A stretch of DNA of 64,000 nt. Source: Octopus vulgaris. Its lineage: Eukaryota. A program made the translations under genes and the position numbers. Below, in pieces: positions 61,599 to 62,328 of this stretch. A model generated the notes under the pieces. It was not told the origin of the DNA, did no database searches, and was given only the letters and a program-made list of their open reading frames with translations. Location of the stretch: assembly GCA_951406725.2 (NCBI GenBank), contig OX597817.1, positions 70,990,001 through 71,054,000 of the forward strand, given 5' to 3'. Numbering within the stretch: position 1 is the stretch's first letter; each line of letters opens with the position of its first letter.

Positions 61599-61657
61599 TA
61601 TATATATATATATATATATATATATATATATATATATATATTTATTATATAGAAGGA

Positions 61658-61706
61658 GCTTCTACAGGACTAGAACTGTTTCATTCAAGAGAAATCTTCA
61701 GGAAGC
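61658..61706 (-). ncRNA. Type I hammerhead ribozyme (antisense copy)
   Basis: Exact reverse complement of 61887-61935. Confidence 0.8.
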
Positions 61707-61885
61707 ATATGATAAAAAACATCAAATTCCCGTTTGAAGAAGACCTCTTCCTCATGATAAAAAACATCAAATTCTCTACCAGTAATGATAAGTACGGCTT
61801 CAAATCAAATAAGGCCCCTCCTACCAACAGCCTACTTGAACCGTTTGAAGAAGACCTCTTCCTCATGATAAAAAACATCAAATTC

Positions 61886-61936
61886 AGCTTCCTGAAGATT
61901 TCTCTTGAATGAAACAGTTCTAGTCCTGTAGAAGCT
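61886..61936 (+). ncRNA. Type I hammerhead ribozyme
   Basis: AGCTTC-CTGAAGA-TTTC(tctt)GAAT-GAAA-CAG(ttctagtc)CTG-TA-GAAGCT. Confidence 0.85.
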
Positions 61937-62328
61937 CCTTCTATATAATAAATTAATTTTACTCTGCTATGTATTGAGTACCTTATTTACTGTGGTTAAC
62001 CCCGATTCAACCCGGGACCTACATATATATATATATATATATATATATATATATATATATATATATATATATATATATATATATATATATATATATATAT
62101 ATATATATATATATATATATATATATATATATATATATATATATATATATATACATAAATATATATAATGAGAACGTTTCTGTCGAATGAAAAAGGGGAA
62201 TATACATATAGGACAGCAGTGACCTGAATAATATTAATAATAATAATAATAATAATAATAACAACAACAACAACAACAACATCGAAAAATACCTCAGGAA
62301 TGAGAACCCAGGTTCGAAATTTCGCCAA

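Follow-up and report, generated by a model that had tools for sequence, protein, structure and literature searches.

How does a short retroelement insertion come to carry three copies of one coding fragment that all end at the same nucleotide but start at different ones? This question is raised by a locus at positions 61599..62153 of a 64,000-nucleotide stretch of Octopus vulgaris DNA (contig OX597817.1, positions 70,990,001 to 71,054,000, forward strand; hereafter, the window). An initial annotation, made from the letters alone, had described two opposed hammerhead ribozymes (HHRs) enclosing three fragments of a Penelope-like element (PLE) ORF, and had read the fragments as a telomerase-like footprint of a reverse transcriptase (RT) that repeatedly re-engaged one template 3' end. 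We analyzed the locus together with its relatives in the 2.8-Gb assembly, which consists of ~30 chromosome-sized contigs.

Anatomy of the locus and identity of the element

The locus is one short insertion of a Hydra-clade PLE. We numbered the element from the start of its hammerhead (+1, window 61886), which places the ORF ATG at +183. In these coordinates the locus reads [68-2] AT [423-443] [399-443] [333-443] [1-141], with the following parts ("run" refers to the order of synthesis proposed below):

61599..61639, no strand: left flank, the (TA)n target microsatellite; the family inserts in (TA)n
61640..61706, - strand: inverted arm, element +68..+2, with a complete hammerhead motif at 61706-61657
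61707..61708, no strand: AT at the head-to-head joint; an identical AT joint occurs in copy L029
61709..61729, + strand: ORF fragment +423..+443, 21 nt, the third and shortest run
61730..61774, + strand: ORF fragment +399..+443, 45 nt, the second run; 0-nt microhomology at its left junction
61775..61885, + strand: ORF fragment +333..+443, 111 nt, the first run; codons 51-87 of the 713-aa Hydra ORF
61886..62026, + strand: direct arm, element +1..+141 (pseudo-LTR, pLTR); its 3' ACATAT overlaps the target
61886-61936, + strand: hammerhead of the direct arm, with the predicted cut between 61930 and 61931
62023..62153, no strand: right flank, the (TA)n target microsatellite

The 21-, 45- and 111-nt pieces show 100% identity across their common 3' ends and all stop at +443, reproducing the coordinates and identity first reported for them. 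The inverted repeat is free of mismatches as described, but its maximal exact length is 67 nt (61640-61706 / 61887-61953) rather than 66. At the 111-nt piece, the left junction has 0-nt microhomology and the right junction a 2-nt AG overlap with +1. The inverted arm appears to be a second cDNA for which the opposite target end served as primer at the AT-rich +59-72 site, and the AT at the joint, absent from the initial annotation, may represent one non-templated A per cDNA 3' end or a 2-nt slip. We observed an uninterrupted reading frame across the three ORF pieces, as the initial annotation had noted. However, its preservation does not appear meaningful, since internal 5' starts are unphased across the family (4 of the 14 listed are in codon phase, three of these four coming from the window locus), and we rejected selection or function as its cause. 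The locus itself, which has no evident function, is probably non-functional, a mechanistic footprint.

The 111-nt piece has ~40 genomic matches, most of which run on into a long ORF. Full-length copies cross +443 without a break, into AGGAGAG, and lack the repeats, so the reiteration is not a feature that the family consensus already carried. A tandem pair gives a monomer of 5,193 nt, a length accounted for by a simple-repeat 3' UTR. One natural copy, L067, contains a single 713-aa ORF in which YRDD is followed, as read by eye, by a C-terminal GIY-YIG endonuclease (LVY..YIG); Pfam matched no relevant family in this ORF. The protein has an RWR variant of the RWK motif (IRWRSFFF), DKT in place of DKG (SDKTKN), a CxCX5C linker (CNCHDKTTC) and, near its C-terminus, CDLC (CxxC) and CMH (CxH), with no CCHH. 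By eye, these motifs agree with rows of the Fig. S7 alignment in PMC8557442, the accessible text of which gives a C-terminal GIY-YIG, RWK, DKT, CxCX5C, CxxC plus CxH and the lack of CCHH as Hydra-clade features. The pLTR hammerhead and the preference for (TA)n, both Hydra-clade traits, are present as well. The monomer exceeds the 3 kb below which members of the clade generally fall, but that text presents this length as a tendency and not as diagnostic. Judged by its protein motifs together with its pLTR and target features, the element is a Hydra-clade PLE.

The peptide encoded by the fragments had been taken for an N-terminal motif of Naiad-type PLE proteins. Naiads have an N-terminal GIY-YIG endonuclease, a CxC linker before the RT, a DKA motif and no canonical hammerhead. 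As the endonuclease here is C-terminal, the motif is DKT and a hammerhead motif is present, we rejected a Naiad identity and assign the peptide to the Hydra-clade ORF.

Two further observations concern related coding sequence. Among L061-L080, many long copies share a 501-aa frame that stops before the endonuclease, while one reads 713 aa; the shorter frame marks either a genuine sublineage of defective elements or a homopolymer assembly error. Elsewhere in the window, a decayed C-terminal RT fragment (62560-62980, + strand; YTYLGGHI...EIRISKAW) belongs to a family that we take to be LINE-like.

Hammerheads and putative priming sites across the family

Each arm folds as a type I hammerhead (CUGAAGA...GAAA...GUA^) at -7.3 and -6.9 kcal/mol, within ~1.2 of the minimum free energy (MFE), with a 3-bp stem II and a U.U adjoining the core. 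The ribozyme-core 24-mer occurs twice in the window, against 0.00 occurrences expected from shuffling. We base the ribozyme call on this core motif and on three loci in which the cDNA stops exactly at the predicted cut, +46, stops which also suggest that the hammerhead cleaves some transcripts. Each arm contains a complete hammerhead motif, though Rfam reported no hammerhead in the window, either at the gathering score or at E<=10. Excision of the insert by its two ribozymes was rejected, as they are encoded by different strands and transcription through the locus would yield a single 67-bp stem. A second, unrelated minimal hammerhead-like motif at window 62326-62375 (+ strand; CTGATGA...GAAA, 8-bp stem II) is probably the pLTR of another PLE family.

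A 22-nt arm motif has 5,181 genomic matches. From the first 100 places listed, on contig 1, we took 60 regions and dropped one overlap. Both arms are present in 41 of the remaining 59, 20 of which are short head-to-head pairs resembling the window locus. Opposed hammerheads, which the initial annotation had singled out as special, are therefore the standard product of the family. Of the 101 outer arm ends in the sample, 50 fall at +137-141 and 49 at +59-72, leaving 2 at other positions. Each of the two main sites is rich in A and T and overlaps the (TA)n target; in four public runs, +1, +68 and +141 are again found as loose arm ends. PLEs are already described as producing inverted 5' copies. 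We infer that both target ends prime at two internal RNA sites, which agrees with the internal initiation and two-strand extension by purified PLE protein described in the accessible text of PMC11167929.

All 34 native contexts have T immediately before +1. Of 50 non-native contexts, 12 have G at this position, the rest being mostly microhomology overlaps with the other arm, and a G-selected search returned at least 616 arms genome-wide with G before +1, many of them ambiguous. This G is probably a copied cap, and +1 acts like the 5' end of a likely capped RNA.

Origin of the nested copies

To place the +443 end in context, we parsed all 44 copies found with a +382-400 motif, a search whose pattern can miss copies because of its fixed non-T last letter. 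Five stop at +443-446 (the window locus, L002, L003, L152 and one arm of L154), none ends at +401-442, and the next end is at +508. Having 5 of 11 ends inside 4 nt gives P ~5e-6 under a simple uniform null over +401-1000, with the ends taken from our own parses. L002 and L003, which join +446 to G+1, look like independent insertions because they differ in diagnostic bases. L152 and L154 stop at +443-446 without a +1 junction, and in L154 short runs start at +441 and +441, followed by a longer one from +443 (lengths 9, 7-8 and 77, i.e. increasing). The expectation that other insertions would show coterminal reiterations at this site was borne out in part: four other ends fall there, repeated short starts are found only in L154, and long nested coterminal copies occur at the window locus only, among the ORF-bearing loci parsed. 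The +443-446 site is preceded by GATAAA at a distance of 13-16 nt, and junctions at this site lack oligo(A), unlike those at +769.

Several candidate origins of these ends were rejected. Splicing does not account for +443 or for the array circles described below, as the unit ends lack GT/AG. Hammerhead trans-cleavage at UUC^+443 was set aside because, judged by eye, the flanking sequence is not complementary to the stems, and chance would suffice to explain the proximity of an end at +332 in L018 to the start of the 111-mer at +333. As a separate observation, 5 of 6 unambiguous internal end sites (+239, +245, +443, +446, +923) lie at codon ends (P ~0.02, post hoc), and +228-249 and +443-446 fall on Pro-Pro-Arg and Arg-Arg codons; ribosome-linked cleavage behind internal ends is a post hoc lead.

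Other insertions also join +1 to internal positions. In L029, +1 is joined to +156 twice, once by an AG overlap and once via an extra G, and these differing junctions are better explained by repeated jumps on a linear RNA than by a circle or by DNA-level duplication. Further joins lead from +1 to +245, +332, +636, +769 (twice) and +923. Such joins are likely RT jumps onto internal ends, common among ORF-bearing insertions. In L045 and L114, +1 is joined to +769 through A5-6 tails, 14 nt behind AATAAA, so that polyadenylation probably occurs prematurely at this position within the ORF. Oligo(A) is present at the junctions at +769 and +277, which suggests that genuine RNA ends lie there.

Two loci are unusual in their make-up. 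L114 (C1:65.71 Mb) is made up, in order, of +1-249, +304-508 and +682-769, joined almost bluntly, a structure that an RT crossing gaps in fragmented RNA could leave. L186 (C1:16.31 Mb) has 171 nt of unrelated sequence, presumably SINE-like, between its two arms, as a jump onto foreign RNA would give.

We also found four arrays:

L144, C2:64.63 Mb: two-armed array, pLTR-derived unit -38..+239
L145, C5:37.48 Mb: two-armed array, pLTR-derived unit -88..+246
L146, C8:91.48 Mb: two-armed array, pLTR-derived unit -45..+228
L147, C15:44.66 Mb: short array, pLTR-derived unit +46..+170, starting at the predicted ribozyme cut

The three two-armed arrays, with units of 277, 333 and 271 nt, start at +141 and +68. 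Over the 14, 24 and 30 units counted, respectively, the junction never varies, the pattern expected from a circular template; the junctions counted in L147 are likewise identical. From their structure, all four look like single rolling-circle insertions, newly born retrozymes.

Together, these data lead us to propose that the RT probably made the nested repeats by first copying a likely capped RNA up to the 5' terminus and then jumping end to end, three times in succession, to RNA that stops at +443. The repeat-free full-length copies, the 0-nt repeat junctions and the recurrence of the end in four other insertions make re-engagement of one site by the RT the preferred interpretation. In the proposed sequence of events, the endonuclease would cut (TA)n, and the target ends would prime internally at +137-141 and +59-72 on a likely capped RNA beginning at +1. 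The first cDNA would reach +1 through the uncut hammerhead, whereupon the RT would jump to the presumed RNA 3' end at +443 and copy 111 nt, then jump again for 45 nt and once more for 21 nt. The templates of these jumps may be successive or progressively 5'-trimmed fragments kept in the RNP, and the two cDNA ends would finally be joined head to head. When contigs of public runs were compared with the 5' 1.1 kb of the element, no +443 joint was present among the rows listed; one low-depth contig, from a run only guessed to be RNA, stops at ~+454 and was not counted.

Several features speak against the jump reading. The +443-446 junctions lack oligo(A), long nested copies are confined to the window locus among the ORF-bearing loci parsed, short repair-like inserts occur at other head-to-head joints, and the exact +443 stop at the junction of the first jump is also expected of top-strand synthesis stalling at an RNA 5' end. 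Second-strand or repair synthesis (of the Pol theta type, or by the RT on DNA) would account for this exact stop at a pre-existing junction: the 3' end of the inverted arm would copy the first cDNA, stall twice at +443, where the RNA 5' end covers +1..+141, and re-prime further back (423, 399, 333). At the joint GGAAGC-AT-ATG, one possible reading gives 1-3 nt of microhomology to +422-424, and short repair-like templated inserts of 10-26 nt are found at other head-to-head joints. However, both re-priming points have 0-nt microhomology, and Drosophila Pol theta runs are described in the accessible part of PMC2895639 as 3-8 nt, against 21-45 nt here. Nor does repair synthesis explain the +443-446 ends of L152 and L154, which lack a +1 junction, and an RT jump to +443 would still be required for the first junction. 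We consider it unlikely.

Telomerase-like reiteration, as originally proposed, would have the RT anchored on one RNA molecule, melting the hybrid and restarting at the same entry for ever shorter runs. It fits the use of the same nucleotide every time, the monotonic 111>45>21 (1 in 6 by chance) and the repeated short starts in L154 at +441, +441 and +443, and PLE RTs and telomerase RT (TERT) share a most recent ancestor according to the accessible text of PMC8557442. However, the stops vary (+333, +399, +423), so there is no fixed 5' boundary; both repeat junctions have 0-nt microhomology, which leaves no realignment pairing; and the L154 runs lengthen. Re-entry on one linear molecule would presumably need unwinding of a 111-bp hybrid, and the identical segments fit one molecule or several alike. 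Thus, repeated engagement at one site is retained from the initial reading, while reiteration on a single molecule appears quite improbable and a telomerase-like process in the strict sense is not supported. In a broader version, to which we give a low probability, the RT would remain attached to a protected RNA 3' end (+443-446) and copy that one molecule several times over while its 5' side is progressively lost, which would amount to telomerase-like reiteration of a primitive kind in vivo. Jumping by an RT anchored in this way would then also yield pLTR partial tandems and, on circularized fragments, new two-armed retrozyme arrays.

An assembly or sequencing artefact is very unlikely. The best listed public run shares only 0.58 of the words of the stretch, and long (TA)n tracts flank the locus, but the arm ends recur as loose ends in the public runs noted above and the +443-446 end recurs on other chromosomes. 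Finally, although duplications and deletions of DNA-level appearance exist in the family (L225, L231), tandem duplication or slippage after insertion, or inheritance from a master copy already bearing the repeats, is scarcely credible: the nested units share one end, microhomology at the three window junctions is 2, 0 and 0 nt with both repeat junctions at 0, which argues against simple slippage, and of the only 3 loci genome-wide that join the ORF end to the pLTR, the other two are repeat-free and use a different junction. In this respect the original dismissal of ordinary tandem duplication was sound.

Comparison with known systems

The clade, inverted arms, partial tandems, internal initiation and template jumping are each already known. 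In the largely open-access literature searched, we found neither PLE copies nested at a common, recurrent end nor a family-level reconstruction of such insertions; the accessible parts of PMC6431247 and PMC2718515 contain nothing specific on such structures. The origin of PLE tandem and inverted structures is stated to be undefined in PMC8557442, as far as its accessible text goes, and self-priming and template jumps have been proposed for other PLE structures (PMC3846280, accessible part). The present family is young and near-identical, so that where its RT primed, stopped and jumped can be traced insertion by insertion. The resulting model is concrete and testable: the two target ends would prime at two internal sites, and the RT would run off at a likely capped +1 and jump to internal RNA ends that recur between insertions. 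Reuse of a single RNA molecule, if it occurred, would connect PLE RTs to telomerase repeat addition in vivo.

Relative to the Hydra clade as described in the accessible text of PMC8557442, including Hydra-1_Obim, the element is alike in its C-terminal GIY-YIG, RW(R/K), DKT, CxCX5C linker, pLTR hammerhead, (TA)n target, and partial tandem and inverted 5' copies. Hydra-1_Obim is by eye a different family, with different HHR and protein sequences. What sets the octopus element apart is its 5.2 kb monomer with a long simple-repeat 3' UTR, and nested coterminal ORF copies are not among the structures in that text.

The RT of PAc, a Poseidon element from Anolis, starts inside its RNA at two preferred sites and extends both target strands, with uncleaved RNA as the main template and an AT-rich target (PMC11167929, accessible text). 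On our reading the window family shares these properties; here, however, the main sites (+59-72 and +137-141) overlap (TA)n by microhomology and lie upstream of the ORF, and secondary ends would be reached by jumps from +1.

Arrays L144-L147 resemble the non-LTR retrozymes in the accessible part of 10.64898/2026.07.22.740005, with units that carry all or part of the hammerhead, whereas the window locus has no such array and its repeated unit is without a ribozyme.

For the R2 RT, the available text of 10.1101/2021.04.30.442027 reports serial jumps in vitro over at least 10 templates using 1-nt overhangs, and end-to-end template jumping (10.1101/2021.04.30.442027; PMC8857657, in part) likewise produces one cDNA from successive templates. 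R2-type junctions, with 0-2 nt of pairing or non-templated bases, were found in the window family. The R2 observations concern a non-LTR RT in vitro, whereas here a PLE RT would have jumped in vivo on fragments of its own RNA.

In telomerase, a fixed 5' template boundary yields equal repeats, and the product realigns by pairing to the template start. The window locus resembles telomerase repeat addition in having a related RT and repeated synthesis from one RNA position, but differs in that there is no fixed template boundary, no alignment region and no equality of repeat length.
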